Of a DNA stretch of 43,169 nt, positions 4,500 through 24,369 are shown one piece after another. The stretch lies in assembly GCA_023818745.1 (NCBI GenBank), contig JAMWBY010000001.1, positions 1 to 43,169 on the forward strand, in the 5' to 3' direction. The notes below the pieces were generated by a model. The model did not search any database. It worked only from the letters and a program-made list of their open reading frames with translations, and had not been told where the DNA came from. How positions within the stretch are numbered: the first letter of the stretch is position 1; every line of letters begins with the position of its first letter. Origin of the DNA: Candidatus Omnitrophota bacterium (GTDB taxonomy: Bacteria > Ratteibacteria > UBA8468 > B48-G9 > JAFGKM01). Position numbers and translations under genes: made by a program.

Positions 4500-4509
4500 A
4501 ATTTTTTTA

Positions 4510-4538
4510 TTTTAAAAATTATTATTATTTCTGTCAAT
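4510..4538 (-). promoter_or_regulatory. Candidate sigma70-type promoter for the 657-aa gene (TTGACA, 17-nt spacer, TAAAAT)
   Basis: On the minus strand, TTGACA lies at 4538..4533 and TAAAAT at 4515..4510. The -10 element ends only about 10 nt before the ATG at 4499, and no SD is visible. Confidence 0.35.
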
Positions 4539-4593
4539 CATTATTGTTTTTTTCATGTAAATCATATGAAAAACTGATAACAAAAATTTTCAC

Positions 4594-4623
4594 TTGACAA
4601 AATTAAAATATATGCTTTATAAT
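4594..4623 (+). promoter_or_regulatory. Candidate sigma70-type promoter for the LacI-headed operon (TTGACA, 18-nt spacer, TATAAT)
   Basis: Exact TTGACA at 4594..4599 and exact TATAAT at 4618..4623. An imperfect inverted repeat AAGCGGTT-aatat-a-AACCGTTT (4628..4649) follows, before the ATG at 4653. Confidence 0.5.
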
Positions 4624-4652
4624 AATAAAGCGGTTAATATAAACCGTTTAAA

Positions 4653-5663
4653 ATGGAAAAAATAACGATAAAAGATATTGCAAAAAAAGCAGGTGTCTCT
4701 CCAGCAGTAGTATCTATTGTATTAAATAATAAAAGAAACACAAAAATATTTGTAAGTGAAGAAAAAAGAAAAAGAATACTTGAAATTGCAAAAAGAGAAA
4801 AATACACTCCAAACAAATATGCAAAAGCACTTGCTACAGGAAGGACAAATACGATAGGAATAATAATTCAACATCTTGAACCTTATACTTCATATTTATT
4901 GGAAAATTTACAGAAATATGCTTTAAAGAAAGATTATGAACTGATGCTTTATCTTATAGAAGATAAAATTGAAAAGGAAAAAGAAATTTTTGAAAAGATT
5001 GCATATGGAACTACAGATGGTTTGATAATTACACATTTTCTAAGTAATCCAGAAGAATATTTAAATTATGCAAAATTATATAAAATAAAAATTGTAACTA
5101 TTACTCCACCTATTGATGATTTACCCTGTGTATATTTTGATGAAAAAATTGCGGGAGAAATATCTGCTAAATATTTAATAAAAACAGGTTGCAAAAGGTT
5201 ATGTGTTGCGGGTGGATATAAGGATTCTGAAAGGTTTAAAGGTTTTATTGAATATGCGAAAAAGTATAACATAACAGTTAATGAAATTATAGATGATAAA
5301 GTTAGAGGATATTTTGAAGATGGATTTGAAATTGCAAAAAGGATATTAAATTTGAAAAAATTACCAGATGGGATTTTTGCATTTAATGATACAATTGCTG
5401 GAGTTATTATTTCAGAATTTAACAAAAGAGGAATAAAAATTCCAGATGAAGTTTCAATTATAGGATGTGATAATACTCAACTTTGTTACTATACTACTCC
5501 AAATCTAACCAGTATAGAGATAAAAACAAAAGAAAGAGCAAAGATTGCGATTGATATGATTATAGACATAATAAATGGCAAAGAAATAAAAATGAAACAG
5601 ATTATTTTAAAACCAGAGTTAGTTATTAGAAATTCAACAAGAAAAAAGGAGGTGATATTATGA
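4653..5663 (+). CDS. LacI-family transcriptional regulator
   Basis: N-terminal [26 protein letters not shown] followed by a periplasmic-binding-protein-like sugar-sensor domain ([16 protein letters not shown]). Confidence 0.92.
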
Positions 5664-6301
5664 AAAGGAAAGGTTTTACGTTAATTGAGTTGCTTGTGGT
5701 AGTGGCGATAATTGCGATTTTAGCAGCGATGTTACTTCCAGCACTTTCTAAAGCAAGAGAAAGGGCAAGACAGGCGGTATGTATGAGCAACTTAAAACAA
5801 ATAGGTCTTACTCTTCTAATGTATGTAGAGGATTACGATGGTTATTTACCAACTGCAAGAGTAGGAACGACTTCTAATACTTGGTTTTCTTTAATATCCA
5901 AAATCACAATTATATGGGTAGGTTATACAACATGGTATCCTAAAGAGCCAGCAATTCCTTTTTATTTCTGGAGATGTCCTTCTGCAATAAAAATAAAAGG
6001 AGAAACATTTGATTGGTATCCTTTTTATAAAGTGAGTTATACATGGAATAGTATGGCAAATTATAAAAAATTAAATAGAAACCCAAATCCTTCAAAATCA
6101 CCTATAGTTTATGATGGGAAATCTTTATATGGAACAGGTTATTATGGATATTCAGACCTCAGAAATTATGCATCACCGAAGAGACACCTTGAAGGAATGA
6201 ATTTACTTTTTCTTGATGGACATGTTGAATGGTATCCAGATAACCTATGGCCAAGAACAGGAAGCGGAAGTAGATACGCTGGTTTTATATGGACATGGTA
6301 A
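5660..6301 (+). CDS. Prepilin-type N-terminal cleavage/methylation protein, DUF1559 / H-X9-DG family (pseudopilin-like)
   Basis: Class III signal [29 protein letters not shown]. The C-terminal [17 protein letters not shown] fits H-X9-DG. The start overlaps the LacI stop (ATGA), with an AAGGAGG SD. Confidence 0.9.
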
Positions 6302-6324
6302 AAATATATTAAAAAAGGAGGGTT

Positions 6325-8457
6325 ATGAAGAGAAAATTTTTGATTTTTTTGAATTTATTTGTGATTAATTTATTTTCAGAAAACTATTATATAAGTAATA
6401 AATTGAACAATAAGTTTATTTTAAAGCCAAGCGAAGAGAAAAGCATTTTGTTTACTTATGATAAAAAAATTACTGGTTCAAAGATTTTACTGTGGATAAA
6501 AGGAAGAATTATGACAGATAGGGAAGGATTTGGTGAATATTGTTTAAGTTTAAAGGTGAATGACAAGGAATTGGAAAAGTTTATAAATAAAGGACAAATA
6601 TTAAAAAATATTGCTTTCCCTGAGGATAACATTTATTTTTATTTGCCCGAAAAAAAAGTATTTTTTCTAAAATATGATTCTGATTATTTACCATACAATT
6701 CTTCTTTTTTGAATGACCCATATAATTGTTCATTTTTTTTAGCAAATGCAAATACAAAATGGAATAAATATGAATTTATAAATTATTACTATGCTTATGT
6801 TTTTGATATAACCGATATTGTAAACCAAGGGAAAAATACCATTTATTTGAAAAATTTAGGTCTTCAATATCCTATAGAATTAGAATATCAGATTAAAGAA
6901 TTAAGTCACCCTATTATCTTATATTCTCATGAACCTGACAGATTGATCTTTCCTCATACTTTTCCTTCTTTTGAGGACTTAAAAGAGAATCTTCATCTAA
7001 CAGGAAAAGGAACTACAGGGACATTTGTTCCACTTGTTTTGTCAATAAAAAATTTAGAAGAGAAAGATATTAAATTTGAAATAAATGTAGATGATTTGAT
7101 TAATGAAAAACAGAAAAATTTAAAAATAGATAAAGAAAAAATTGAAATAAGAATTTTAAATTATACCTCAATAAAAACATCAAGAAATTTTGAATTTATT
7201 GATAATGAAAAAATTTTATATCCAGATAAACTTGAACCTTCTAAATTTATAGATTTATTAAATAAACAAACGAAAACAGTATGGATAAATATAAATATTC
7301 CAGATGATATACCTTATGGCACATTTAAAGGAAAATTAAATTTAAAGTCAGAGAAGCACAATTTTGATATTCCAGTAATTGTTGATGTTTTACCTTTTAA
7401 ACTTTCTAAAATAGAAATTATGTGGGGTTTATGGGTTAATAATTTGCCAGGGAAATTTGATGAATTAACAAGTAAGAGAATACAGGATTTAAAAAATCAT
7501 GGGATTAATTCAGTTACAATGGACCCTTGGACATGTCCTGTTAAAATTAGCAAAGAGGGAGAAAATATAAAAATTGACTTAACAGGACTTGAAATGGCAA
7601 TGGATTTATATAGTAAAAATAATATAAATACAAATGGTCCTATTCCATATGGAGTTTTGAGTCCAATTTTTGATCAAATAAAAACTATTTCTCAAAGCGA
7701 AATAGGCGAAGAAAATTATTTTAAAGTTGCAGAACAGGTTTTTAAAAAAATTATGGAAATTTCTAAAAAATATAAAATTGACCTTTATTTCCATCCAATA
7801 GATGAACCAGATGTCCATCCAAATACTATTGAAAGTTTTGAAAAAATATGTAAATTAATTAAAAAAATAGAAGGAACAAAAGTATGGAGTAATAACACTC
7901 CTTCTGGAATGAAAAAATATATAAATTTAGTTGATGTAAATTGTTCCCCTTTATATCCTCTATTAGATGCCTATAGTGGACATAACTTTCAAAATTTTTT
8001 CTTTCCTAATTGGGGTATTATAGACAAGGATTGGATGAAAGAAAATGTAAAGCATACATATATTCAGGTAAGAAGTAAGACTCCTTACTCAAATAGATTA
8101 TATTATGGTTTTATGGCTTGGTATTTAAATCTTAATTCAATCTGGGGTTTTGCTTATTACTGGAATGTAAAAGAAGGTTGGTATGTTGCATATCCAGTTT
8201 TAAATAAAGATGGAGAAATTTGGTCAACAGTGGGATGGGAAATGCTTAGGGAAGGAATTTATGACTTTAAATATTTGAAAACCCTTGAAGAGTTATTAAA
8301 AATTAAATATGGGGATAAAGAAGCAAGAAACTACATAATGAAAAATATACTTCCACCTTTTGAAAAATTAAAGAATTTTTCCAATGAGGATTTTTGGAAT
8401 TTGCGAGAAAAAATAATAGATGAGATAATTAAACTGGTAAAAAAGGAGGGCAAATGA
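6325..8457 (+). CDS. Secreted protein of unknown function, possibly a glycoside-hydrolase-like (DUF4091-type) enzyme
   Basis: N-terminal signal peptide (KFLIFLNLFVINLFS), strong SD, and blocks FHPIDEPD and WGFAYYWN. The family assignment is tentative. Confidence 0.3.
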   Translation: MKRKFLIFLNLFVINLFSENYYISNKLNNKFILKPSEEKSILFTYDKKITGSKILLWIKGRIMTDREGFGEYCLSLKVNDKELEKFINKGQILKNIAFPEDNIYFYLPEKKVFFLKYDSDYLPYNSSFLNDPYNCSFFLANANTKWNKYEFINYYYAYVFDITDIVNQGKNTIYLKNLGLQYPIELEYQIKELSHPIILYSHEPDRLIFPHTFPSFEDLKENLHLTGKGTTGTFVPLVLSIKNLEEKDIKFEINVDDLINEKQKNLKIDKEKIEIRILNYTSIKTSRNFEFIDNEKILYPDKLEPSKFIDLLNKQTKTVWININIPDDIPYGTFKGKLNLKSEKHNFDIPVIVDVLPFKLSKIEIMWGLWVNNLPGKFDELTSKRIQDLKNHGINSVTMDPWTCPVKISKEGENIKIDLTGLEMAMDLYSKNNINTNGPIPYGVLSPIFDQIKTISQSEIGEENYFKVAEQVFKKIMEISKKYKIDLYFHPIDEPDVHPNTIESFEKICKLIKKIEGTKVWSNNTPSGMKKYINLVDVNCSPLYPLLDAYSGHNFQNFFFPNWGIIDKDWMKENVKHTYIQVRSKTPYSNRLYYGFMAWYLNLNSIWGFAYYWNVKEGWYVAYPVLNKDGEIWSTVGWEMLREGIYDFKYLKTLEELLKIKYGDKEARNYIMKNILPPFEKLKNFSNEDFWNLREKIIDEIIKLVKKEGK

Positions 8458-9239
8458 AAAAAAAGAAAATTATATTTATTTTTTTTATCTCAAATTTTTT
8501 ACTATATTCAGAAGTTATAAATATAGTTAAAGAAAAACAAATACCCTATAAAATTTCTGTTGGTTCATTTTTTCAACATTTTGGAAGGAAATTGGATAAT
8601 GATTTAACTCAATATAAAACTTACACCGTAAAAGATAATATTCTCTTAGACAAAAATGGCAAGGAAGTAGGCAAATTAGAAAAAGATGAAAAGTTATTTA
8701 TAGTTTTAGAAGATAAAAAAATAGAAGTGAAAGAAATTTTAAACTATATAATTTTTAATGAAAAAAATGAAAAAATAGGCAAAGTTAAATTAGACAAAGA
8801 TGGAAATATTGAAAATATTCTATTGATTGTTAATGAAAATGGTGATTTTTTTGAAAGAAAAGGACTTTTAATAGATGGTAAAGATTGGTATGCTCCGAAA
8901 AATGGGGTTTGTTATGTTTTCTGGAGAGTCCCTGTTGAAGAATCATTTATAACCGCTGAGTTCAATTTAGGTAAATTATATAAAATAAATAAAATAGTAG
9001 TAAGAGGTCAAAATCTTTCTGGAATGTATGGAGTGAGTAAAGTAAAAATATTTGTGAGTAAAGACGGAATAATATTTAATGAATTGAAATCAACAGAAGA
9101 AATTTCTCAACCTGAAAGTGGAAAATGGTTTGTTGAGTTTCCTAATTTAGACATAGATGCTAAATTTGTAAGAATAACTGGATTTGCAAAAGAAAATAAA
9201 TATTTAGATTTAACAGAATGTGAAATTTGGGGTGAGTGA
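8454..9239 (+). CDS. Secreted protein with a C-terminal discoidin (F5/8 type C) carbohydrate-binding domain
   Basis: Signal peptide present. The C-terminal pattern AEFNLGKLYKINKIVV...KIFVSKDG..F...AKFVRITG...LTECEIWGE is typical of discoidin domains. The start overlaps the upstream stop by 4 nt. Confidence 0.6.
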   Translation: MKKKKIIFIFFISNFLLYSEVINIVKEKQIPYKISVGSFFQHFGRKLDNDLTQYKTYTVKDNILLDKNGKEVGKLEKDEKLFIVLEDKKIEVKEILNYIIFNEKNEKIGKVKLDKDGNIENILLIVNENGDFFERKGLLIDGKDWYAPKNGVCYVFWRVPVEESFITAEFNLGKLYKINKIVVRGQNLSGMYGVSKVKIFVSKDGIIFNELKSTEEISQPESGKWFVEFPNLDIDAKFVRITGFAKENKYLDLTECEIWGE

Positions 9240-9244
9240 AAAAT

Positions 9245-10330
9245 TTAAGTAAAATCAAAATAATCAAGTTTATCAATGCCTGAAGGACGAGGATTTAGTT
9301 CAAGAAATATAATTTTTAAATTTTTTCCATCTGTTTCAAGTAAAATATCCATTCCTCCTATTTTAAGTTTTTCTTTTAATCCTTTATTGAAGAATTTGAA
9401 AATTTTTTTGATTTCTGAAATGATTTGAATTTTATGTGTCTCTGTTAGAATAAATTTTTCAAAACCTTTCTCTATTCTATAATAAAGATTATTTTTTATA
9501 TCTTTGAAGTTTAAAATTTTACCACCTTTATAAGGAGAAGTAATTGGAAATTTTTCATCTGGACTTATTTCAAAAAAACACCAGTTTGAAAAAATTTTTC
9601 TCTTATACTCAAAAATAAAAAATCTTAAAACAACATCTCTGTATCCTAAAATTTTTTCATCTTCTTTAAAGTAATAAACATTTCCTCTTTTTTCCTTTAT
9701 AATAACTGGTTGTTCTGGTAAAATACTCATAACTGTTTCAATTAAAAAATTAAAGTTTTTAATTATTTCTGTTTTTGTAAAAAAATATGTTTGTTTTCCC
9801 TCTGTTCCATAATTTGGCTGAATATAAAAACCCTGTGTTTTTTGATTTTTAATAAATTTCTCAATTTTTTCTTTTAAATTTTTTCTGTCTTTAAATTCAA
9901 TAAGAAGCGATGAAGGCGTATAAATTTTAAATTTTCTTATTTTTTCAATTGTTTTGTATTTATTAGAGGATAAAAAGGAAACAAAAAATGGATTAAGTTG
10001 ATTTATTTTATATTTTTTTAGATACTCAGATATTTTTTGATGATTCTGATGTTCAAATTCAGGATTAAGTGATAAGATAATTGAAAAATGAAAGTAATCT
10101 AAGTTTTTAATTTTTGTGGTCTGAATATTAAAATTATCATCAACAAAGAGTATATTATCCGAATCAAAACTTTTCAACCACCTTTTTGCATAGAAATTTA
10201 AAAGAAGACCTTCTTTCAAACAGAAAAACTTAAAAAATGAAAGGACTCTCTTTATATATTCTTCATCAACCTCATAAATTAGAAGTAAGTTTCTCAACTT
10301 TCTCTTTATATATTTTCCCTCTTTCTGCAA
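9245..10330 (-). CDS. ATP-grasp-like ligase (stand-alone)
   Basis: The order of blocks fits an ATP-grasp fold: FYIQPNYGTEGKQ (glycine-rich loop-like), VIIKEK, RDVVLRFFIF, GGMDILLE...IIFLELNPRPSG (E-x-N metal motif). The annotated start overlaps the giant ORF by 59 nt. Confidence 0.5.
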   Translation of the reverse strand: MQKEGKYIKRKLRNLLLIYEVDEEYIKRVLSFFKFFCLKEGLLLNFYAKRWLKSFDSDNILFVDDNFNIQTTKIKNLDYFHFSIILSLNPEFEHQNHQKISEYLKKYKINQLNPFFVSFLSSNKYKTIEKIRKFKIYTPSSLLIEFKDRKNLKEKIEKFIKNQKTQGFYIQPNYGTEGKQTYFFTKTEIIKNFNFLIETVMSILPEQPVIIKEKRGNVYYFKEDEKILGYRDVVLRFFIFEYKRKIFSNWCFFEISPDEKFPITSPYKGGKILNFKDIKNNLYYRIEKGFEKFILTETHKIQIISEIKKIFKFFNKGLKEKLKIGGMDILLETDGKNLKIIFLELNPRPSGIDKLDYFDFT

Positions 10331-13300
10331 GACAACTAAATATTATGAAAACACCTTCTCCTTTTCTTTCAGGAGGTAATCTATCATTATGTGGTCGCCA
10401 CAATCCTGCGCCTGGATTTGGTTCTATTTTACAAATTACTAAACTTGGAACTTCATTCCCATTTTCATCATAAATTTTTCTTGGATTTCCATCTTCATCA
10501 AAATAAGATACTGAAAGAACCTTTTTATTTTTGTCAATTCTTGGTATTTCATTTCCATTTTCATCATAAATTTTAACTTTTGTTGGATATCCATTTTCAT
10601 CATAAAGAGGTATAAGTTTTCCTTTTTTCTCATCATAAACATACTTTAAGTTTTCAAATTCATCTATTAAAAATACAGGCATATAATCACCCATTTCATA
10701 AGGAATACCTGTAATTGGAAAATCTGTTAAATCAGTAAATATTTCTTCATATTTAACCTTTCCTTTAAATTCTGGATGTATTTTTAGATATTCTTCAAGA
10801 ACAAATTTCCAATTTCTTTCAAGATATTTTTGCTGTGATTCTAAACTTTTATAAACCGCTTTTGTTATTTGTTCTCTTAATGTTTTTCTATATTTTGGAT
10901 GAATAATGTCGTCTGTATATTCATATAAAAGCCCGCCCTGACCTACATTTGCTATTCCTCTTGTGCTTATTACTGTTATATGATGAGAAATCTTATATCC
11001 ATCTTTTCCAAGAACCACAATCTGCCTAAAATAGGAATATAGGGGTGTTTGTGGTTCTTTATCAATCAATACAGGAATACCAATTTTGGCAAACCTTTCA
11101 ACAACATTTTCAAGAAATTCTTTTGTATAAAGTTGTCTTACCCTTGATTGTATTACTTCCTGAATTACAGCATTATCAGTTAATGAAATTTCATAAACAA
11201 GGTCTGTTAATTTATCAACATTTTCCTGTAAATATTTTTTATCTTCTCTTACAGGTAAAATCATTGATTTTCTTCCGCCTGATTCTTTTTCACATTTAAC
11301 AATAATTGTATCATATTTTTGGGCAAGAGACATTATTTTCTCTCTTATTTTTATTTTTGCTTTTTCTTTAAATTTTGCTGTATCTTCCATATACCAGTTT
11401 TCCTGTTCAGGCGCTTTAACTCCAGAACCTTCAAGCATTTTTGGTAATTCACATTTAAGATGTGTTGCAGCTTCCCATATTAGTGGCTGAATAATTGGAA
11501 TTTTAAAATGGTCAATGTATGGTCTTAAAGGATGTGTAAAGTGGAAGAAAATTGAATGAAGAATCACTGGTTTTTTAAATGAAATGAAAACAAGGTCTGT
11601 TTTGTTTTCTGTTATATTTCTATATTTTCCCCTTAATAATTCAAGTTCTTCTTTCGCTGGATAAATCATACCTTCATTTATCAATAGAAATTTATTTCCT
11701 TTTTTCTCTTCCACAGATGGAAATGCTGATATGAAAAGATTTATATTGTTTTTTGCAAATTTAGGACCTTCTTGTAGAGCAACCGGTACTGTTGTGTTTC
11801 CATAAGGATAGATAATACCTACATTTACTCTTTCATTCACTTTTAAATCTTCTGGGTCAACATCCATAAAAATTTCTGGATATCCAAAACCTTCATATTT
11901 AAGAACAACTGCATCTCTTATTCTTGCATAATGGAACCAGAAAATTTCTTCTCTTGTTTCTCCTCTTACTCCTATTGCCATTTTATTTTTCTCAAAATTA
12001 CCTATATATAAATCCTTATACTCAATTGAATAATTTCTCAAAGGTGTCTTTTCACAAACAAGGTAAACCAAATGAGAATAAAGGAATCTATGATATTTAA
12101 ATGCAAGTTGAAATTTAATTTCCCTATGTAGTTTTTCAAAATATGCAGACCTTTCTTTATGATAATGATAAGGTAAGTAGTCAAAAATGTGACTGTTTAC
12201 TGTTCTATCAAGGAATTTAGCAATAGCAGCATTAAATTCATCTTCTGTATAACAAACTGAAACAAGTTCAAGCAAAAACGCAATATCAATCAACTCAAGA
12301 GCCATACAAACTTTTTCATAAAGTAATAGGTCTTTTTCTTTAAATCTTGGTAGATTAGAAATTGTTGTTGCAAAATTGATATAATTTTCTTCTTTTATTT
12401 CTGTAAGTTCAAAAAAGTTTTCAACTTCATTTAAAACTGTTTCTTTTTCTTTAATTTCTTTTGTTTCTTGTATAAGGTGCTTAATAAAATTTTTACTTAT
12501 TCCAAGAAATTCTCCAAATGTTTCGGGTGGAATTATTCTATCTGGTTTTCCAAGAGTATCTTTTGCTTTTTTATAAATTTCTTCAAGAGATAGATTTTTT
12601 AAAGACGATTCATCAAATTTTTTATAACTTTCTTTCTTTTTTTGTAGATTTTTTATTTTTTCAAATTCTTTTTTCCTTTCCTGCCATCTTGCAAGTGTCT
12701 GTGTTTGAATTTCTGCTGCTTTTAATGAACCAGCAAGTCCTGTACTTATTTCTTCATATCTTTTTTTCAATTCAGGAATATATATTGGTCTGAAATATTG
12801 TTCTATGATAAAATCAATTTCCTTTCTCTCAAATAACTGCCTTTTATTATCCTTTAAGATTTTCTTTAATTTTTTCTCAAATTCCAATCTTAATTCTTCC
12901 ACCTCTTTTTTTGTGTATTTTCCATTTAGTAAAAATATTCCACCAAAAATTAACCACTTTCCAAAATCAATATATTTCCAGTTATCTTCTTTGGATAAGT
13001 TGACAAATGTTTCTGTATAATATTTATCTTTAAGACCCCAAGTGTTTATTCTTTTTGATTGTTGTTCTTCTAAAAGGACTTGATCTACTTTGTTTTCTAA
13101 TATAATATAATTTTTTATTTTTGCAAGTGTATCAAATAATGCTTGTTTGCTTTCACCTATTATTGAATTTAATAATTCTTCACTTAAACTCCTTTCTTTT
13201 TCCATCTCTTTTTTCCAGTTTTCAATCGTTTCTCTTCCTATTCCAAGACAGCCATAAACTGCTTTTTCTTCAATAGCAAAAAGTTCTTTAACCTTCCTTC

Positions 13301-16300
13301 TACAATTTGGATTATTGTAAGCAAAAGATGGTCTTCTTGCACCTGAAGTTCCGTCAGCAAAAACAAGTGCACTGAAAGGTCTATCTTTTTTAATTAAATA
13401 TAAAAATTCTGGTAAATTATCAATAAGTTGTAATAATTCAGGGTCAGGTATTCCAAGGTCAACAAAATCAACCCCTCTAACTGCGACTTTATAAGATGAA
13501 AATGGTCCTCTTTTATCAATGACAAGTAGATGAATTTTCCCTTTTAGGTCATTATAAATTTTATTTATTTCTTCATAACTTCTTTCTCTTATCCCAACCC
13601 ATTTTCTTATATCTCCACCATAAATAATTGCATTTGTTTTAATAAGATTTTCATCAAGCCCAATTTTGTAAAGGTATTCAAGAACTTTATTTTTTATTTC
13701 TTCAAGTCCTGAATTAGGCACATGATTTAGTATATCTGAACCAGTACATTTTCCAACAATTCTTATATCCGCAGGTGGTGTAAAATTTTTAAATATTTCT
13801 TTTATTATTTCTCTTCCTTCAGGGTCAATGTCAAGCAATATATGTTTTTCCGCAACTAAACTATAAATTTCAAGTTTTCTACAGCCAGCACTAAATCTTA
13901 CATCTGATACAGGAATTAATCTTCCATCTTCAATTTCGCTCTCCTTATAACTTACATCCATAACTCCCACCAATTCATCATCAGGCAAAATAAGTTTATT
14001 TTTCTCTCTTGCTTTTTTAACAAGGTCATATATAAGTTTTACTTTTCTAAAAGGACCAATCCTATTTATTTCTTCAAGTCCTTGTGCTTTTTTATTTACC
14101 CAGTAAGTTAGTTTAAACTCATTTATTCTCTCTTCCTCTCCTTCTGGAATAACTATTCCCATTTTTTCTAAAGTTATAGCAATCTGAGGTAATCTTGAAA
14201 GATATGTTGGCTGGCCAAAAATTTTGAAATATTCAGGATATCTTGTGTAAAGATATGATAGCGCTTTTCCTTCCCAGTCAATTTCAAGTTCAAAGTCAAA
14301 TCTCCATGCAAGTATTCTTCTCATATCTTCAATTACATTATTATGAAGTTTTTCTGGGATACCAAAAGAGTCCAATATTTTACTTGAGGTTTCTTTATCA
14401 ACAGCAGAAATTATAATTGCATACAGTAAACTAAATTCTTTTGGAACACAAAATCCACCATATGTCTCACCAGATGGAAGTACTATTCTATCTCCTCTCA
14501 TATTCCATTGATTTCTGAAGAACTCAAATTCTCCGAATCTTAAAACATCAAGATTAATGCCTGCTGTCAATGAAAGATAGAAAACACCACCTCTTGAGAA
14601 AAAGTTTTCCCCAACCTTTAAAAATTCTGCTATTCTTGTTGAAGGGATAATAGTTGGGCCAGCAATGTTATATAAAGAATAAAGAGATTTTCCAGAAATA
14701 GCAGAATGGGTATCTACTCCACCAACCCATTTAGGAATATCCCTTACTGAGTAAACCTCTTTTGCTCCAAGATCAACCCTGCTTGGTGTATAAAGTAAAT
14801 TATATTTTTTATAACCACCTTTTGCTTCATATCTATATATAGGTTGATTTAGTTTTTCAAGAAGACCTTCTTCTACAATAATTTTTCTTTGAGCATTTAG
14901 TTTTGAATATACAGGATGGAGATAATCTTTTATAAAGGAAGATACATATTTGGTAAGATTATATTTTTTTATCAAATCTTCTCTTAAATTTTTTAATATT
15001 TCTGCCTGTTGTTCTGTCAATTTATTTGTATTTAAATTTTCTTTTATTTCAGGTGGTAATTGATCTACAATTTCTTGAATTTCTTTCGCTTTGAAATTTT
15101 CACTGTTTATATCCTGCCCTTCATTGATTAAGAGGATTGAAAGTTTTGCTACCTCTCTGCTTACTTCAGGATAGGCGAGAATAACCTTCATAACTCCTTC
15201 TTTAAAATTTTTATCATCATATTTAAAAACTTCACTCTCAAGATTATTTTCTTTTATAATTTTTTCACCAACTTTTATAATATTTTCTCTCCATATCTTT
15301 CTTCTCTGTTCAACCTTTTCAATTAAATTATTTCTTTTCAAAAAATTATAAAGAAGCATCCCTTCTTCAAGCCAGTTTTTTACATTAAATTCTGTTTCTC
15401 CTGGACCAAGAGTTGTTAAAACATGGACTGATGGCAAATCCCTTCTTTTTCTAAAAAAGTTATTCAGATAATCTGTTACATTTTTTTCAAGATTATATTT
15501 TTTAACAAGGTCTTCCAGTGATTTTTTAAGAGATTTTTTACTTTCATAGTTTTTAATTATTTCATCAATTATATCTTTTTTCTCTTCTATTAACTTTTTT
15601 ATTGCATCATATCTTAATATGTTTTCTCTTTCGCAAATTCTTCCAACTTCCTCAACCATATTCTCATACATTTTTTCTATTAAAACAGCACACATACTAA
15701 CTTCATTTTTATATTTTTCTAACTTTTTAATAAGTTCGTCTTCGCTTTTAAATTTCATTTTAAGCAAGTAAGCAATAAATTCTCTTGCAAGTTGTAAATG
15801 TTCTGTTAACATTACATCATTTATATTTTCAGCCCAATACTCAGCATTTGCTCTATACATTTCTTCAAGAATATTCCTCTGGACAAATGGTTTAAATTTA
15901 TATGAGCCATCTTCAGGAATAATCTCATATGACGCATATGCAGGAAGTGCTTCAATCCAATCATCACAAACTTTTAACCAGTTTTTCATTCCAGCAGTCA
16001 CATAAATATTTTCTCCTCCTTCGCTTAAAAGTTCATCTATATGAGGGTCTTCTCCAAAAAATGGGTCCATAAGTTCATTTAAAACACCCATAAATATAGC
16101 ATCTATTGGAAAGATTCTCTGGAAGAATACCATATAAATAGGAGGTCTCCCTTCTTCTTTTTCTACTTTTTCTTTGAAACTTTTTATTTCTTTTCTAATC
16201 TTATCTATAATTTTTCTATCATTTTCATAAGTTGTTTGTTTTAATTTACCTTCATCAAACTTTTGGATAAGTTTTAATTCATAATCAATAAGGTCCTTCT

Positions 16301-16931
16301 CTAACTTTTTTAATGTTCCAAGAATTTTTGATTTTGCAGATTCTTTTTCTCCTAATAAGTAATCAATTTCATTTATTTCTGTATGAAGATAAAAAGGCAT
16401 AAATTCCAGTTGTTTAATTTTATTCAATATTGCGTCTAAATTATCTTTAAATTTTTCTGTTTTTATAACCCGAGAATTTGCTAAAAGTAGCGCATCAATA
16501 TAAAAAGCCCTGCTAAATCTTCCACAAACAATTCTTCTATTTTCATTTCTTGCTTTCAAACTTATTTTATAAGCACATTCCTTATCCTGAATATCATTAT
16601 ATGTTTCATTTATTACTTCATATATTTTATTTCTTAATTGTTCAAGGTCTTTTTCTGTTTCAAGAATTTTTTTAACCATTCTTCTATCGTAAGATATTCC
16701 AAATGTTTTTCTTGCAATAAGCCATGCTGCAATTTTTTTCTTTTTTAATAAGTCCTCTCTTTCATAAGATAAAAATTCAATATACCAGTCACCATTTTCT
16801 TCCTTAATAAGTGCATTTTTAATTTTTTCTTTAAGAGAAATAGAAAATTTTTCATAATCTGAAAGTAATTTCAAAAGTTCTTCTTTAATTTCTGCCTTTT
16901 TTAATTTTTCTATAAATTTTTTGGCATCCAT
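10272..16931 (-). CDS. Giant 2219-aa multidomain protein with a helical N-region, a nucleotide-sugar-dehydrogenase-like core and a C-terminal ATP-grasp module
   Basis: Single uninterrupted ORF with a GGAG SD. aa 764-835 (STRIAEFLKVGENFFSRGG...GETYGGFCVPKEF) parallels [17 protein letters not shown]...GLGGHCIPID of the bona fide dehydrogenase at 40888..42234. aa ~1860-2219 carry ATP-grasp-like blocks: IIVKCEKESGGRKS, IANVGQGG, KIEPNPGAG. No signal peptide or TM segment is evident. Confidence 0.85.
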   Translation of the reverse strand: MDAKKFIEKLKKAEIKEELLKLLSDYEKFSISLKEKIKNALIKEENGDWYIEFLSYEREDLLKKKKIAAWLIARKTFGISYDRRMVKKILETEKDLEQLRNKIYEVINETYNDIQDKECAYKISLKARNENRRIVCGRFSRAFYIDALLLANSRVIKTEKFKDNLDAILNKIKQLEFMPFYLHTEINEIDYLLGEKESAKSKILGTLKKLEKDLIDYELKLIQKFDEGKLKQTTYENDRKIIDKIRKEIKSFKEKVEKEEGRPPIYMVFFQRIFPIDAIFMGVLNELMDPFFGEDPHIDELLSEGGENIYVTAGMKNWLKVCDDWIEALPAYASYEIIPEDGSYKFKPFVQRNILEEMYRANAEYWAENINDVMLTEHLQLAREFIAYLLKMKFKSEDELIKKLEKYKNEVSMCAVLIEKMYENMVEEVGRICERENILRYDAIKKLIEEKKDIIDEIIKNYESKKSLKKSLEDLVKKYNLEKNVTDYLNNFFRKRRDLPSVHVLTTLGPGETEFNVKNWLEEGMLLYNFLKRNNLIEKVEQRRKIWRENIIKVGEKIIKENNLESEVFKYDDKNFKEGVMKVILAYPEVSREVAKLSILLINEGQDINSENFKAKEIQEIVDQLPPEIKENLNTNKLTEQQAEILKNLREDLIKKYNLTKYVSSFIKDYLHPVYSKLNAQRKIIVEEGLLEKLNQPIYRYEAKGGYKKYNLLYTPSRVDLGAKEVYSVRDIPKWVGGVDTHSAISGKSLYSLYNIAGPTIIPSTRIAEFLKVGENFFSRGGVFYLSLTAGINLDVLRFGEFEFFRNQWNMRGDRIVLPSGETYGGFCVPKEFSLLYAIIISAVDKETSSKILDSFGIPEKLHNNVIEDMRRILAWRFDFELEIDWEGKALSYLYTRYPEYFKIFGQPTYLSRLPQIAITLEKMGIVIPEGEEERINEFKLTYWVNKKAQGLEEINRIGPFRKVKLIYDLVKKAREKNKLILPDDELVGVMDVSYKESEIEDGRLIPVSDVRFSAGCRKLEIYSLVAEKHILLDIDPEGREIIKEIFKNFTPPADIRIVGKCTGSDILNHVPNSGLEEIKNKVLEYLYKIGLDENLIKTNAIIYGGDIRKWVGIRERSYEEINKIYNDLKGKIHLLVIDKRGPFSSYKVAVRGVDFVDLGIPDPELLQLIDNLPEFLYLIKKDRPFSALVFADGTSGARRPSFAYNNPNCRRKVKELFAIEEKAVYGCLGIGRETIENWKKEMEKERSLSEELLNSIIGESKQALFDTLAKIKNYIILENKVDQVLLEEQQSKRINTWGLKDKYYTETFVNLSKEDNWKYIDFGKWLIFGGIFLLNGKYTKKEVEELRLEFEKKLKKILKDNKRQLFERKEIDFIIEQYFRPIYIPELKKRYEEISTGLAGSLKAAEIQTQTLARWQERKKEFEKIKNLQKKKESYKKFDESSLKNLSLEEIYKKAKDTLGKPDRIIPPETFGEFLGISKNFIKHLIQETKEIKEKETVLNEVENFFELTEIKEENYINFATTISNLPRFKEKDLLLYEKVCMALELIDIAFLLELVSVCYTEDEFNAAIAKFLDRTVNSHIFDYLPYHYHKERSAYFEKLHREIKFQLAFKYHRFLYSHLVYLVCEKTPLRNYSIEYKDLYIGNFEKNKMAIGVRGETREEIFWFHYARIRDAVVLKYEGFGYPEIFMDVDPEDLKVNERVNVGIIYPYGNTTVPVALQEGPKFAKNNINLFISAFPSVEEKKGNKFLLINEGMIYPAKEELELLRGKYRNITENKTDLVFISFKKPVILHSIFFHFTHPLRPYIDHFKIPIIQPLIWEAATHLKCELPKMLEGSGVKAPEQENWYMEDTAKFKEKAKIKIREKIMSLAQKYDTIIVKCEKESGGRKSMILPVREDKKYLQENVDKLTDLVYEISLTDNAVIQEVIQSRVRQLYTKEFLENVVERFAKIGIPVLIDKEPQTPLYSYFRQIVVLGKDGYKISHHITVISTRGIANVGQGGLLYEYTDDIIHPKYRKTLREQITKAVYKSLESQQKYLERNWKFVLEEYLKIHPEFKGKVKYEEIFTDLTDFPITGIPYEMGDYMPVFLIDEFENLKYVYDEKKGKLIPLYDENGYPTKVKIYDENGNEIPRIDKNKKVLSVSYFDEDGNPRKIYDENGNEVPSLVICKIEPNPGAGLWRPHNDRLPPERKGEGVFIIFSCLAERGKIYKEKVEKLTSNL

Positions 16932-16947
16932 TTTAACTCCTTTTTTT

Positions 16948-18453
16948 TTAAATTATTTCAACTCCATTTACAGAATTACACACAAATGAAGCAAAATTTA
17001 AATTTCTTGATTTGTAATACTTTTTATATAAGATATCTAAAACATTTTCAACTTTGTTTTCTTCTACAAGTATTACTACACAACCTCCAAGTCCTGCTCC
17101 TGTTATTTTTGCACCTTTAACCCCTTTTATATTTTTAACTAAATCAACAATAAAGTCAACATCTTCCACACTGCATCTATAAGCACCTGGTTGATAATAA
17201 ATTTCTGTTTTTTTTCTTTCTTTTTCATCTTTGCTTTCAGAATGTTTTATAAGTTTTTTAAGATATTCATCACTTACTCTATAATTCCATTTTACCTTCT
17301 TTCCATTTTTTAAAAATTTTACAACTCTATCTCCATCGTGAGAAATATACATAAGTTTACCAAACTCGTTTATATTATTTTTTTTCAATAATTCAGAACA
17401 GATATCAGCCCGTGCACATTCACTAATCCCATAAAGTAATACATCTCTTATAGCATAACCGTTTTCAGGTTCTTTATGGGTTTCAAAAATTTTATCAAGT
17501 TCTTGATCCTTTAAGGTTTCATAAATTTCAAATCTTTTTAGTTTGTAAGGAAGATTAAGTAGAATATTATAAATAACTTTATCACTTCCCAGATTTTTTC
17601 TGTTTATATCTCTAATATAGTTAAGTTTAATTCCAATCTCTGGAAATTTATTCTTTATAAGTTTCAATCCAATTATATAAGTTGCTACTCTTTCGTTGAA
17701 GACATCTTTAGCATTTGCAGATTTTTTGGCTTCAATCAATGAATTACAGCATATGATTTTATAATTTTGAGGAAAAGGTATATATTCAACAACAAACGGA
17801 AAAAATCTTATATGAGTAATGTAATTTTCTCTCCCAAGAATCATAGAAGCATGGTCTCCACTTCCACCCCTTGTTCCAACAAACCATTCTGCTTCTCCAC
17901 ACATTTCAGGAAGTTCTTCTTTTTTTATAGGTAAATTATAAAGATTTATAATTGCACTCATAGTTGCTACTACTATTGCAGATGAAGAACTTAAACCTGC
18001 TCCTGTTGGAATTTCTCCATAAAAGAAAAGATTTACTCCACTAATATTCATTTTAGGAAATTTGTTCTGTAAATACAACACACCTGCTTTTATATAATTT
18101 GACCAATCACCTTGGACAATTTTTACTTTTCTTATAAAGTCAGTCCATATAATTCCTTTCTCTGGTAATTCTTCATCAATATCAAATATCTGTGATTTAT
18201 ATTTTTCTTCTTCAAAATCATAAACATAAACTTTTCTATCTTTTCTTTTCCCTGCTATACACCATAAATTTTTATCAATTGTAAGGGTATTTATAAAACC
18301 ACCTCTATGTTCAATATGAGTTCCAAGAAGGTTTATTCTTGCCGGGACTCTTATTAAAATGACATCTTCATCACAATTTTTTTCTATATATTTTTTAATC
18401 AGTTCTTTTAAATTCTCATTTTCTACTTTTTTCAAATATTCTGAACATTTCAT
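16948..18453 (-). CDS. GHMP-family sugar kinase, galactokinase-like (long form, 501 aa)
   Basis: Galactokinase-type N motif VPARINLLGTHIEHRGG, GHMP motif II PTGAGLSSSSA and motif III KITGAGLGGCVV. Confidence 0.85.
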   Translation of the reverse strand: MKCSEYLKKVENENLKELIKKYIEKNCDEDVILIRVPARINLLGTHIEHRGGFINTLTIDKNLWCIAGKRKDRKVYVYDFEEEKYKSQIFDIDEELPEKGIIWTDFIRKVKIVQGDWSNYIKAGVLYLQNKFPKMNISGVNLFFYGEIPTGAGLSSSSAIVVATMSAIINLYNLPIKKEELPEMCGEAEWFVGTRGGSGDHASMILGRENYITHIRFFPFVVEYIPFPQNYKIICCNSLIEAKKSANAKDVFNERVATYIIGLKLIKNKFPEIGIKLNYIRDINRKNLGSDKVIYNILLNLPYKLKRFEIYETLKDQELDKIFETHKEPENGYAIRDVLLYGISECARADICSELLKKNNINEFGKLMYISHDGDRVVKFLKNGKKVKWNYRVSDEYLKKLIKHSESKDEKERKKTEIYYQPGAYRCSVEDVDFIVDLVKNIKGVKGAKITGAGLGGCVVILVEENKVENVLDILYKKYYKSRNLNFASFVCNSVNGVEII

Positions 18454-18455
18454 TT

Positions 18456-19280
18456 TTATACTCCTGAATAAGCATTAAACCCTCCATCAACAGGAATTAC
18501 AGTTCCTGTAATAAAACTACCAGCATCAGAAGATAACAAAATACAAATTCCAACCAGTTCTTGTGGCTGTCCAAATCTTCCCATAGGTGTATGACTAACA
18601 ATTTTTTTCCCTCTTTCTGTTAAATTTCCGTTTTCATCAACTAATAAATATCTGTTTTGCTGGGTTAGAAAAAAACCAGGAGCAATTGCATTAACTCTTA
18701 ACTTATTATTGTATTCCATGGCAAAATGGACTGCAAGCCATTGTGTAAAATTACTTACGGCTGCTTTTGCTGCTGAATAACCAGGGATTCTCGTTAATGG
18801 TCTAAAAGCATTCATAGAAGATATATTTATTATTGAACCACCATTTTCATTCTTTATCATATATTTTCCAAAAGTTTGGCATGGTAAAATAGCACCGCCA
18901 AAAAGATTTAAAGCAACAACTTTTTCAAGTGCTGATAATGGTAAATCAAAAAAAGAAAGTTCTGTAGATGTAGTTGCTTCTTTTATATTCCCACCTGCTG
19001 AATTGATAAGAATGTCAATTTTACCATATTTATCAATTATTTTTTTTGCAACTTCTTCTATTAAACTTTTATCAAAAACATCAAGATATTCACCTTCTGC
19101 TTCTATACTTAATTTTCTTAAATTTTCTGCAGTTTCTATATAATTTTTAATATCAGCAATTATAACTTTTGCTCCTGCAAATCCAAGCCCTTTTGCTATT
19201 TCAGAACCAAGTATTCCACCACCTCCAGTAATCACTGCAACTTTATCTTTTAAAGAAAAAATTTTATTAATAAAATCCAT
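18456..19280 (-). CDS. Short-chain dehydrogenase/reductase (SDR), gluconate/mannonate-oxidoreductase-like
   Basis: TGGGGILG cofactor motif, NSAG, and catalytic YSAAKAAV (YxxxK). Confidence 0.9.
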   Translation of the reverse strand: MDFINKIFSLKDKVAVITGGGGILGSEIAKGLGFAGAKVIIADIKNYIETAENLRKLSIEAEGEYLDVFDKSLIEEVAKKIIDKYGKIDILINSAGGNIKEATTSTELSFFDLPLSALEKVVALNLFGGAILPCQTFGKYMIKNENGGSIINISSMNAFRPLTRIPGYSAAKAAVSNFTQWLAVHFAMEYNNKLRVNAIAPGFFLTQQNRYLLVDENGNLTERGKKIVSHTPMGRFGQPQELVGICILLSSDAGSFITGTVIPVDGGFNAYSGV

Positions 19281-20286
19281 TTTTTACCTCCATTTTTAGA
19301 TAACATAAAGGGTCTTCTTCTAAAAAATCATTATATAAACTATAAGCAAGCGCTCTACACCCTATACATTCATCAATTATACAATTTTTACATCTTCCTT
19401 TCAAAAACCTTTTATTTCTAATTTTGTTTAATACTTCTGAATTCAACCATATATCAATTAATTTTTCTTTTAATAGATTTCCAATAGATAAAGGTAATCT
19501 TCTACAAGGAAAAACTGTTCCATCTGGCATTATTGCAATTCCATCTTTTCCAACAATACATTGACTTCCATATAATTCATATTTTTTATCTTCAATTTTA
19601 ACCATATAACCTCTAAATTCTAAAATGTTTGTTGTATTAAAATCAACATTACAGATATTATGTAAAAATTTAGTTATTTCAAGCCAATTTTCAAAAGAAA
19701 TTGTTTCACTTTTCATATCTTTACCAAGTCCATATGGAACAAATCTTTCTATTACTAATCCATTAAAATTATAATTATTTGCAAAATCAAAAATTTTAAA
19801 AATCTGTTTCCAATTTTTTTCAAGTATTGTAAACATCAAAAATTTATCTGATTTAATATCTTTAATTTTCTCACATATTTTTATAAACCTTTCAAAATTT
19901 TTACCTCTAAAAAATTCGTATAATTCTTTATCAACAGATTCTGTTGAGATTTTTAATATAATTTTATTTTTTTCAATTTTGTAAATAACCTCGTCAGAAA
20001 GAAAAAAACCATTTGTTATTATTCCAAGATTTTTGGTTTGTTTTAAATTTAAAATTGTTTCAATCAATTTCCACATATTTTTGTGTAAAAATGGTTCTCC
20101 ACCAGTTATATCAATTACAAGTTTTCTATTTGTTTTTTTTAAAAAATCGCAAATATTAGAAAAAATATAAATAAGTTTTTCAAAAGAAAGGTCTTTGTCA
20201 GGAGAAAAATTATCCTGATAACAATGTTTGCATCTCAAATTACAATTGTCTGTTATATGCCATTGAATATGAAAGGTATTTTCCAT
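19267..20286 (-). CDS. Radical SAM enzyme with a C-terminal SPASM-type auxiliary-cluster domain
   Basis: CNLRCKHCY (CxxxCxxC) near the N-terminus and a GGEP motif. The C-terminal Cys-rich region reads CIVGKDG...PDGTVFPCRR...CKNCIIDECIGCRA. Confidence 0.88.
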   Translation of the reverse strand: MENTFHIQWHITDNCNLRCKHCYQDNFSPDKDLSFEKLIYIFSNICDFLKKTNRKLVIDITGGEPFLHKNMWKLIETILNLKQTKNLGIITNGFFLSDEVIYKIEKNKIILKISTESVDKELYEFFRGKNFERFIKICEKIKDIKSDKFLMFTILEKNWKQIFKIFDFANNYNFNGLVIERFVPYGLGKDMKSETISFENWLEITKFLHNICNVDFNTTNILEFRGYMVKIEDKKYELYGSQCIVGKDGIAIMPDGTVFPCRRLPLSIGNLLKEKLIDIWLNSEVLNKIRNKRFLKGRCKNCIIDECIGCRALAYSLYNDFLEEDPLCYLKMEVKNGFY

Positions 20287-20351
20287 AGAAATATATTTTA
20301 CTTTTTTTTGAATTTGAAATAAACTTTAATTTAAAATTATAAGGAAATCTA

Positions 20352-23514: not shown

Positions 23515-24369
23515 TTGTTTAGAAATATATCGTTTGAAGCGATAAATATAAAAACTACATTACTTGAACAATTACGTCTTGCAAAATTAGGAAATTTTGA
23601 AGGAATAGATGTTTCAATTTTAGATATTTACGAATTTTCCAAAAATGATAAAGTTGACAAAATTAAAAATTTGATTGATAGTTTTGATTTAAAAATTGGT
23701 GGCTGGTGTTTACCCTTTAATATTGACGAAGAAGAAGATAAATTTAATCAAGATATAGAAAAACTTGAAGAATATTTAAAAGTTGCAAAAAAAATTTCTG
23801 CCTTCCGAATTTATACATGGATTGTTCCTTTTTCTGATAATTTAACATATAAAGAAAATTTTAAATTTCATTTAAAAAGAGCACAAAAAATATGTAAACT
23901 TATAGAAAAATATAATTGTAGAATCGGTTTTGAATTTGTAGGTACTAAAAGTTTAAGAATAAATCATAAATATGAATTTATTTGGAATCTTGAACAGTTG
24001 CTTGAATTTTTAAAAAAATTAAAAATGGAAAATACTGGAATCTTACTTGATAGTTGGCATCTATATGCATCTGATGGAAAAGTAGAAGATATTATGAAAT
24101 TAAAAAGCAATGACATAATTTATGTTCATATTAATGATGCTCCTGATTTACCTAAAGAGAAGTTGATTGACAATGAAAGATTTTTACCTGGAGAAACAGG
24201 AGTAATTAATTTAATTGGTTTTTTAAGAGCACTTAAAGAAATCAATTATGATGGCCCAGTAACTCCTGAACCATTCAATAAAAGAGTAAATGAGCTTCCA
24301 AATGAAATAAGTGTAAGATTAACTGGTGGATATCTCTTAAAAATTTGGGGAAAAGCATTTTCTCAATAA
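23515..24369 (+). CDS. Sugar phosphate isomerase/epimerase (xylose-isomerase-like TIM barrel, AP-endonuclease-2 superfamily)
   Basis: Blocks FEFVG, LLDSWH, VHINDAP and PEPF. TTG start 1 nt after the upstream stop, with a GAGGAGG SD. Confidence 0.75.
   Translation: MFRNISFEAINIKTTLLEQLRLAKLGNFEGIDVSILDIYEFSKNDKVDKIKNLIDSFDLKIGGWCLPFNIDEEEDKFNQDIEKLEEYLKVAKKISAFRIYTWIVPFSDNLTYKENFKFHLKRAQKICKLIEKYNCRIGFEFVGTKSLRINHKYEFIWNLEQLLEFLKKLKMENTGILLDSWHLYASDGKVEDIMKLKSNDIIYVHINDAPDLPKEKLIDNERFLPGETGVINLIGFLRALKEINYDGPVTPEPFNKRVNELPNEISVRLTGGYLLKIWGKAFSQ

Follow-up and report, generated by a model that had tools for sequence, protein, structure and literature searches.

Conserved association and repeated fusion of a GHMP kinase, a giant multidomain protein and an ATP-grasp partner across uncultivated phyla

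The described systems closest to the locus studied here are the galactokinase-like GHMP kinases of the GALK2/Gal1p type, the nucleoside diphosphate (NDP)-sugar dehydrogenases of the UDP-glucose dehydrogenase (UGDH) and WecC/Cap5O types, the TupA-like ATP-grasp ligases and cyanophycin synthetase. In the dehydrogenases, the glutamate of the PE(R/F) motif promotes thioester hydrolysis, as is known from work on human UGDH. Among the ligases, the TupA-like ATP-grasp enzyme Cj1438C amidates glucuronate at its C6 carboxylate (PMC11800379), and this reaction serves as a precedent for the chemistry proposed below. The locus lies in an AT-rich stretch of 43,169 nt (approximately 28% G + C) from a Candidatus Omnitrophota bacterium (contig JAMWBY010000001.1), referred to in full as the window, and comprises five minus-strand genes. 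Three of them encode a GHMP kinase, a protein of 2,219 amino acids (aa), hereafter the giant protein, and a small ATP-grasp protein, hereafter the partner. Our comparative analyses showed that these three form a conserved, repeatedly fused and ancient unit across many uncultivated phyla and some archaea, and that this core is built of known catalytic folds in an arrangement without a named counterpart. The three genes are located as follows.

16948-18453, minus strand: GHMP anomeric sugar kinase, GALK2/Gal1p-like, 501 aa, core component
10272-16931, minus strand: giant protein, whole gene, 2,219 aa
9245-10330, minus strand: small ATP-grasp partner, 361 aa, TTG start, core component

The giant family was represented by 69 genome loci, spread over Bathyarchaeota and more than 12 bacterial phyla, with sources in Omnitrophota, Ratteibacteria, Aminicenantes, Armatimonadota, Sumerlaeota, Latescibacterota, Planctomycetota, Aerophobetes, Elusimicrobia, Gemmatimonadota, Methylococcaceae, Myxococcales and Bathyarchaeota; a further eight (L001-L003 and L073-L077) were added through look-ups of exact proteins. 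Neighborhoods were counted by clustering all flanking open reading frames (ORFs) and by hidden Markov model searches. The partner was found directly downstream of the giant gene in approximately 49 of the 53 loci whose downstream flank extends for 1.3 kb or more, and an anomeric sugar kinase stood beside the giant/partner pair in approximately 29 loci. This kinase was GalK-like in 19 loci, where it was placed either immediately before the giant gene or immediately after the partner; its identity to the window kinase dropped in step with that of the giant protein. In a giant subfamily of approximately 25% identity, found in Latescibacterota and Gemmatimonadota, a fucokinase-like GHMP kinase followed immediately after the partner (nine loci).

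The same three components also occur as single polypeptides. In L042 (8265-20891), one ORF of 4,208 aa comprises giant, partner and kinase, and at least 11 of the representatives exceeding 2,700 aa run giant-partner-kinase, while at least eight run giant-partner. The giant-partner-kinase fusions, including that of L042, are 3,400-5,600 aa long (P0077, P0078, P0080, P0083-P0086, P0090, P0098, P0140 and P0143). Some fusion representatives bear extra extensions of 900-3,400 aa, and P0071 reaches 7,944 aa; Pfam detected no domain in the extra regions of the mega-fusions P0078 and P0105. In a small, AT-rich genome with densely packed genes such as this one, unrelated genes might have been brought together by compaction with no shared function. 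This explanation is very improbable, as the adjacency of the core trio over more than 12 phyla and the repeated fusions rule it out for these three genes; it is possible for the two remaining genes of the cluster only. Pfam, NCBIfam, the PDB and the searchable literature yielded no characterized counterpart of the core, in line with the initial annotation, which could not map the cluster to a known pathway.

The kinase matched the Pfam domains PF00288 (62.5 bits) and PF08544 (44.4 bits), both above cutoff, together with the galactokinase signature PF10509, while its score against the galactokinase equivalog TIGR00131 (181.1 bits) was below the cutoff of 226.65. Its best PDB match was human GalNAc kinase (2a2c, E 5e-30), followed by yeast Gal1p/Gal3p; its assignment to the anomeric sugar kinases in the initial annotation is borne out. 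Its length of 501 aa, which had been thought unusual, is indeed long for a bacterial GalK but is normal for the GALK2/Gal1p type, to which its best PDB relatives belong. In each of the 20 giant-associated kinases compared, T, V or R stands in place of the Glu of the sugar-binding GEH motif, part of the galactose-binding signature (the window kinase reads GTH), and the catalytic Arg and Asp are retained. The G[T/V/R]H motif marks a distinct kinase subfamily, in which the sugar pocket is probably different.

The giant protein could be divided into the following regions.

14862-16931, minus strand: N-terminal region, aa 1 to approximately 690, mostly helical with scattered strands
13167-14861, minus strand: predicted NDP-sugar 6-dehydrogenase-like module, aa approximately 690-1255, with the Cys828 codon at 14448-14450
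11892-13166, minus strand: all-helical middle region in the AlphaFold2 (AF2) model, aa 1256 to approximately 1680
10275-11891, minus strand: C-terminal ATP-grasp module predicted from Foldseek and invariant residues, aa approximately 1680-2219
10437-10655 (aa 2093-2165), minus strand: YDENG-repeat insert within the ATP-grasp module

Searches with the giant protein returned 42 full-length homologs (E up to 0.001) of 2,070-2,560 aa, with conservation spanning the whole length, and all of those bearing a source name were called hypothetical. Pfam gave no match (E up to 0.01), and NCBIfam gave only a sub-threshold dehydrogenase match (TIGR03026, E 8e-6), whose 24.8 bits fell far short of the cutoff of 189.8. 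A simple sequence search of the PDB with the giant protein and the partner was nearly empty. AF2 models were obtained from 15-row alignments for aa 56-1255 and 1256-2219, with predicted local distance difference test (pLDDT) scores of 79.3 and 84.9, respectively. When the model of the N-terminal half was compared with the PDB using Foldseek, the top 50 matches were all NDP-sugar dehydrogenases (among them 4r16, 4xrr, 2o3j and 3g79, with CalS8 and UGDH represented). The family profile likewise matched 3g79 in the PDB (E 1.4e-4), and PF00984 was matched in 12 of 36 family members. The window itself also encodes a canonical WecC/UGDH-type NDP-sugar dehydrogenase with all three Pfam domains (40888-42234), approximately 24 kb away amid housekeeping genes, which was used as an internal reference for the degenerate module of the giant protein. 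Alignment of the two with hhalign gave a probability of 96% and paired the following motifs.

YTPSRVDLG in the giant protein with YSPEREDPG in the canonical dehydrogenase
IPKWVGG in the giant protein with IPKVVGG in the canonical dehydrogenase
AEFLKVGEN in the giant protein with AEATKLLEN in the canonical dehydrogenase
GGFCVPKE in the giant protein with GGHCIPID in the canonical dehydrogenase

In a comparison by eye, YKE...SDVRFSAG of the giant protein also matched YKKDVDDIRESPA of the canonical nucleotide-binding domain. The catalytic residues K772, N776 and C828, the last within GGFCVPKE, are invariant across 35-36 giant sequences, and E832 is conserved. Taken together, the profile alignments and the structural model indicate that this module is homologous to the central domain of NDP-sugar dehydrogenases and matches their overall fold.

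The region N-terminal to this module (aa 1 to approximately 690) showed no family match in Pfam or NCBIfam, and fold searches with the N-terminal half model against the PDB and the viral database BFVD matched nothing beyond the UGDH part. A profile of this region, searched against 1.84 billion representatives, recovered only 127 clusters, and each consisted of proteins of the giant family or fragments of them. Its invariant motifs include GRFSRAF and HVLTTLGPGETE. From these searches, the region appears to be without a known relative. The giant protein of the window was itself missing among the matches to its family, the best being 89% identical and partial, while the radical SAM protein encoded in the same cluster is an exact NCBI entry (P0166, 100% identical); the giant gene may be unannotated or flagged as a pseudogene in the public record.

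In the AF2 model of aa 1256-2219, only helices were present up to approximately model residue 424, and this region of approximately 420 aa had no significant fold or family match in Foldseek or Pfam. The C-terminus that follows matched VanA in the PDB (1e4e, E 2.6e-4) and then MdnC (5ig9), Ddl (2i87) and DcsG (6jil), with a Foldseek probability of 1.0 for each; weak sequence matches to ATPgrasp_ST and GSH-S_ATP were seen in five and four of 36 family members, respectively. The residues K1879, E1883-S-G-G-R1887, D2082 and E2170-x-N2172 are invariant. The Foldseek matches assign the modeled C-terminus to the ATP-grasp fold, in which, by analogy, K1879 would be the Lys that binds ATP and E2170-x-N2172 the Mg site. 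Between the putative Mg-binding strands carrying D2082 and E2170-x-N2172 lie five tandem YDENG-type repeats of approximately 11-20 aa each, an insert of approximately 75 aa, for which one homolog showed a weak RHS_repeat match.

The window copy of the partner alone had no match in Pfam or NCBIfam. It is homologous to the members of an alignment of 38 partner-family sequences (alignment A6), in which ATP-grasp_3 was matched in 21 (best E 1.1e-9), ATPgrasp_ST in 15 and YheCD in 13, and the family profile matched Ddl in the PDB (4egj, E 4.4e-5) as well as RimK, LysX and TTLL. The window protein has K124, a QPNYGTEG loop, D328 and E344-x-N346, with K124, D328 and N346 invariant. At the level of its family, the partner is thus assigned to the ATP-grasp proteins by profile matches. 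The possibility that it is a recent duplicate of the ATP-grasp module of the giant protein was considered and dropped, as BLASTP found no similarity between the two proteins. The domain calls of the initial annotation were confirmed for the whole cluster (radical SAM/SPASM, short-chain dehydrogenase/reductase (SDR), GHMP kinase, dehydrogenase-like module and two ATP-grasps), that of the partner at the family level.

Two ATP-grasp modules in a fixed order might also be expected of a template-independent polymer synthetase, in which the giant protein and its partner would work like cyanophycin synthetase or like poly-gamma-glutamate or TupA teichuronopeptide machinery to build a peptide or sugar-peptide polymer from a primer or monomer supplied by the kinase. 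The matches to ATPgrasp_ST and YheCD in the partner family agree with such a role, the large helical regions could act as a scaffold, and a PGA_cap (CapA-like) gene lies between giant and partner in L003. However, PGA_cap was found in this one locus only, and the profile matches to cyanophycin synthase and tubulin polyglutamylases (TTLL) are not only weak but insignificant (E 0.17-0.6). Mur-ligase-like components, membrane components and an exporter are all missing from the cluster, and we consider polymer synthesis of this kind distinctly unlikely.

We propose instead, with moderate confidence, that the core operates in the cytoplasm as an enzyme system of three parts, namely the kinase, the giant protein and the separate small ATP-grasp. 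The kinase would produce a sugar-1-phosphate from a hexose-type sugar other than plain galactose. The sugar-1-phosphate, or an NDP-sugar derived from it through either an enzyme of another locus or the N-domain of the giant protein, would bind the dehydrogenase-like module, where C6 would be oxidized to the carboxyl level through a thio-intermediate at Cys828. Each of the two ATP-grasp modules would then convert a carboxylate to an acyl phosphate and couple it to an amine, which would yield a uronic acid amidated with an amino acid or amine, perhaps with a second residue added. The substrate may belong to the hexose/N-acetylhexosamine (HexNAc) class, since NDP-HexNAc is the substrate of the best dehydrogenase relatives and GalNAc kinase is the best relative of the kinase.

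A number of observations weigh against this proposal. Approximately 1,100 aa of the giant protein are without an assigned function. The Glu of the (N/S)PE(F/R) motif is replaced in the giant family by the invariant Ser717, so the module is perhaps not a classical four-electron dehydrogenase. The GxGxxG NAD-binding motif could not be located in the giant protein, with none within approximately 150 aa upstream of the module; atypical candidates are GPGETE (509-514) and GRFSRA (137-142). These two features argue against a textbook dehydrogenase and leave room for a direct transfer of the Cys-bound acyl group. Approximately 40% of the loci have no kinase beside the pair, and a few near-duplicate metagenome-assembled genomes (MAGs) enter the locus counts, in which L001 equals L009, L002 equals L023, L025 closely resembles L075, and L059 closely resembles L065. 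The window cluster encodes no nucleotidyltransferase and, as the initial annotation also noted, no glycosyltransferase or exporter. Nucleotidyltransferases are found in the clusters of other lineages, namely CofC-like proteins (TIGR04282) in several Latescibacterota/Gemmatimonadota loci and GalU in Methylococcaceae, and the window module may therefore not be self-contained. Finally, the neighbors of the core look catabolic, comprising LacI, ROK and AraC regulators, glycoside hydrolases, gnd, AP_endonuc_2 and GFO_IDH_MocA.

These neighbors lead to a catabolic or salvage explanation, in which the trio would channel a hydrolase-released sugar, such as a uronic acid or N-acetylhexosamine, to central metabolism, with the ATP-grasps acting as kinases or activating enzymes and with the UxuB-like SDR of the cluster and gnd as the true partners. 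In the window, the cluster is flanked by LacI, GH123-N-like and F5/8C genes on one side and by GH106-like, TIM barrel and PfkB genes on the other. The SDR scored above the cutoff for D-mannonate oxidoreductase. A gnd gene directly follows the partner in L005, L018, L022 and L076 and is also present in the window (915-2411), in several lineages a ROK or AraC regulator comes immediately upstream, AP_endonuc_2 and GFO_IDH_MocA flank the core in L015, L040 and L074, and a NagB/6PGL-like gene occurs in the archaeal loci. Moreover, GALK2-type kinases are salvage enzymes. However, only the kinase and the partner are kept with the giant protein family-wide, and none of these neighbors is; the nearest relatives of the partner are amino-acid and peptide ligases (Ddl, RimK, LysX and TTLL); and we know of no catabolic pathway with a protein of the architecture of the giant protein. 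Thus, we regard this explanation as unlikely, and the three-part system proposed above as the preferred one.

Several features of the surroundings are recorded here in their own right. The gnd gene, which in close relatives comes straight after the partner, is parted from it in the window by a block of approximately 7 kb (2526-9239), which contains a 657-aa ORF without a family match and convergent LacI, DUF1559 pilin-like, GH123-N-like and F5/8C genes, and which looks like an insertion or rearrangement. On the other side, the GH106-like/TIM-barrel sugar unit ends with a RACo-like protein (24371-25987; 2Fe-2S ferredoxin plus ASKHA; AcsV-like with 332 bits against a cutoff of 800), an odd setting for a protein of the corrinoid-reactivation type. 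In nine loci of the distant subfamily (L045, L046, L050, L056, L058, L061, L063, L069 and L072), a conserved PAS histidine kinase and sigma-54 response regulator are found upstream of the giant gene, with HDOD in most of them, which suggests signal-controlled expression rather than control by a sugar repressor.

The remaining features of the cluster are two accessory genes and the intergenic region upstream of them.

18456-19280, minus strand: SDR, D-mannonate-oxidoreductase-like, 274 aa
19267-20286, minus strand: radical SAM/SPASM protein (rSAM), 339 aa, first gene of the cluster
20287-20351: intergenic region separating the divergent rSAM and GH106-like genes, 65 nt, presumed promoter region

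The five ORFs have exactly the coordinates and spacings given in the initial annotation, as verified from the ORF list and by reading the junctions, and so does the 65-nt divergence from the GH106-like gene. The rSAM and SDR ORFs share a 14-nt overlap, 2 nt separate the SDR from the kinase, and 16 nt containing GGAG separate the kinase TAA from the giant ATG. The partner ORF has no in-frame ATG; it could start at TTG 10330, with a 59-nt overlap with the giant gene, or at TTG 10297, with an overlap of 26 nt, and neither candidate start has a clear Shine-Dalgarno sequence. The 59-nt arrangement is also present in close relatives. One weak promoter-like match was found on the minus strand (20318-20290); overall, scans for consensus promoters and terminators were at background level and are uninformative on transcripts. 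The five genes are probably one transcription unit.

The SDR, classified by its profile score, matched D-mannonate oxidoreductase (NF006132) with 345.9 bits, above the cutoff of 281, and its best PDB match was 4wuv (E 2e-64). Orthologs with 72-85% identity adjoin the kinase only in L004, L007, L008 and L076, and also in L077. An SDR present in the distant subfamily was considered as an ortholog and dropped, as it is FabI-like and approximately 22% identical. Judging from this distribution, the UxuB-like SDR appears to have been recruited within an Omnitrophota/Ratteibacteria-like clade only.

The rSAM protein matched PF04055 (74.5 bits) and the SPASM domain PF13186 (43.4 bits), both above cutoff, and carries a CX3CX2C motif (C15-x3-C19-x2-C22, read as CNLRCKHC in the translation). 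Its scores against named subfamilies (ACGX, AhbD, NirJ, anSME and maturases of ribosomally synthesized and post-translationally modified peptides (RiPPs)) were all far below cutoff, the best being TIGR04340 (151 against 400), and its best PDB relatives were CteB and SkfB. The family is large (1,918 matches at E up to 1e-20), and the rSAM gene accompanies the giant gene only in the window and its close relatives L004, L007, L008 and L077; the giant protein is 76-81% identical to that of the window in the first three of these relatives, and the rSAM is 69% identical in L077. Two homologs, with 52% and 49% identity (L078:7103-10461 and L079:7145-10576), are divergent to an AP_endonuc_2 TIM barrel gene and are followed by pyruvoyl arginine decarboxylase and agmatinase genes, with no giant gene nearby. 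The TIM barrel of the window (23515-24369), which sits across the presumed divergent promoter from the rSAM gene behind the GH106-like gene, is 35-36% identical to the TIM barrels of L078 and L079 (E 1e-61). This pairing in distant homologs suggests that the older association of the rSAM is with the TIM barrel, and it may point to the actual role of the rSAM, whose gene seems to have been recruited only in close relatives of the window. An anti-phage defense or RiPP role for the rSAM was considered and dropped, as neither a precursor nor a defense context was seen, and no further test was made.

The initial annotation had suggested that all five genes act in sequence on one sugar, as a self-contained pathway of activation, modification and ligation. 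The ORFs overlap or nearly abut, and the order rSAM-SDR-kinase-giant is kept in L004, L007, L008 and L077 despite a differing upstream context (fab genes in L077); this shared order is weak evidence, as these genomes are fairly close to the window. On the other hand, L076 has SDR-kinase-giant-partner without the rSAM, the rSAM homologs with 49-52% identity pair with the TIM barrel, arginine decarboxylase and agmatinase, the window TIM barrel is related to those TIM barrels as described above, and both the rSAM and the SDR are absent from most giant loci. A pathway of all five genes is therefore quite improbable. The neighborhood comparison suggested in the initial annotation came out strongly positive for kinase, giant and partner, including their fusions, but not beyond: the SDR is limited to one clade and the rSAM to close relatives, while nucleotidyltransferases join the clusters elsewhere. 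Thus, by the distribution of its genes the cluster is an evolutionary composite of a three-gene core and two later additions, and the SDR and the rSAM need not share the substrate molecule of the core.

The core gene set defines a widespread enzyme system that is unnamed in databases, and Pfam leaves approximately 60% of the giant protein uncovered. Its hosts belong to many uncultivated phyla, dominant in sediment, groundwater and hot-spring communities (Omnitrophota, Latescibacterota, Aminicenantes, Armatimonadota, Planctomycetota, Gemmatimonadota and Bathyarchaeota). More tentatively, the core might be an unrecognized ancient machine, at times a single chain of 3,000-8,000 aa, that makes a new class of metabolite or polymer; the N-terminal region would then be a new catalytic fold, such as a nucleotidyltransferase or sugar transferase, and the dehydrogenase-like module, without its hydrolytic Glu, would pass the Cys-bound acyl group directly to the ligase with no free uronic acid. 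We give this stronger version a substantial chance, although one well below even. The repeated fusions point to a clear three-protein unit for biochemistry and cryo-electron microscopy, and solving the core could bring to light a new catalytic domain and a new metabolite or polymer derived from sugar and would improve the annotation of thousands of MAG genes.

Compared with the described systems, the kinase shares with GALK2/Gal1p the N- and C-terminal GHMP domains, the galactokinase signature, a length of approximately 500 aa and the catalytic Arg and Asp; it differs in scoring below the galactokinase cutoff, in the loss of the GEH Glu and in being often fused C-terminally to the partner. Cyanophycin synthetase is likewise a large multidomain protein in which ATP-grasp is combined with other modules. 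However, it has neither a dehydrogenase-like module nor a kinase partner, the core described here has no Mur-ligase-like M domain, and the sequence similarity is insignificant (E 0.17). Like Cj1438C and the TupA-like ligases (Pfam ATPgrasp_ST and ATPgrasp_TupA), the two modules here have a predicted ATP-grasp fold with intact ATP and Mg motifs and are associated with putative sugar-activating and C6-oxidizing enzymes, and members of the partner family match ATPgrasp_ST. In contrast to those ligases, the modules lack any glycosyltransferase, polysaccharide-export or capsule setting, two ATP-grasps go with one giant scaffold, that of the giant protein has the insert of approximately 75 aa, and the window copies fall below every Pfam threshold. 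Relative to the dehydrogenases of the UGDH and WecC/Cap5O types (3g79, 4r16 and 2o3j), the module is embedded in 2,219 aa with large insertions, scores far below the cutoff, has no locatable GxGxxG and carries an invariant Ser in place of the PE(R/F) Glu. Nevertheless, it appears to share with them the central-domain sequence and the overall fold, and it keeps the IPKxVGG, KxxxN and GGxC(x)PK(D/E) motifs with the invariant Cys as well as the YK...D-x-R-x-S of the nucleotide-binding domain.

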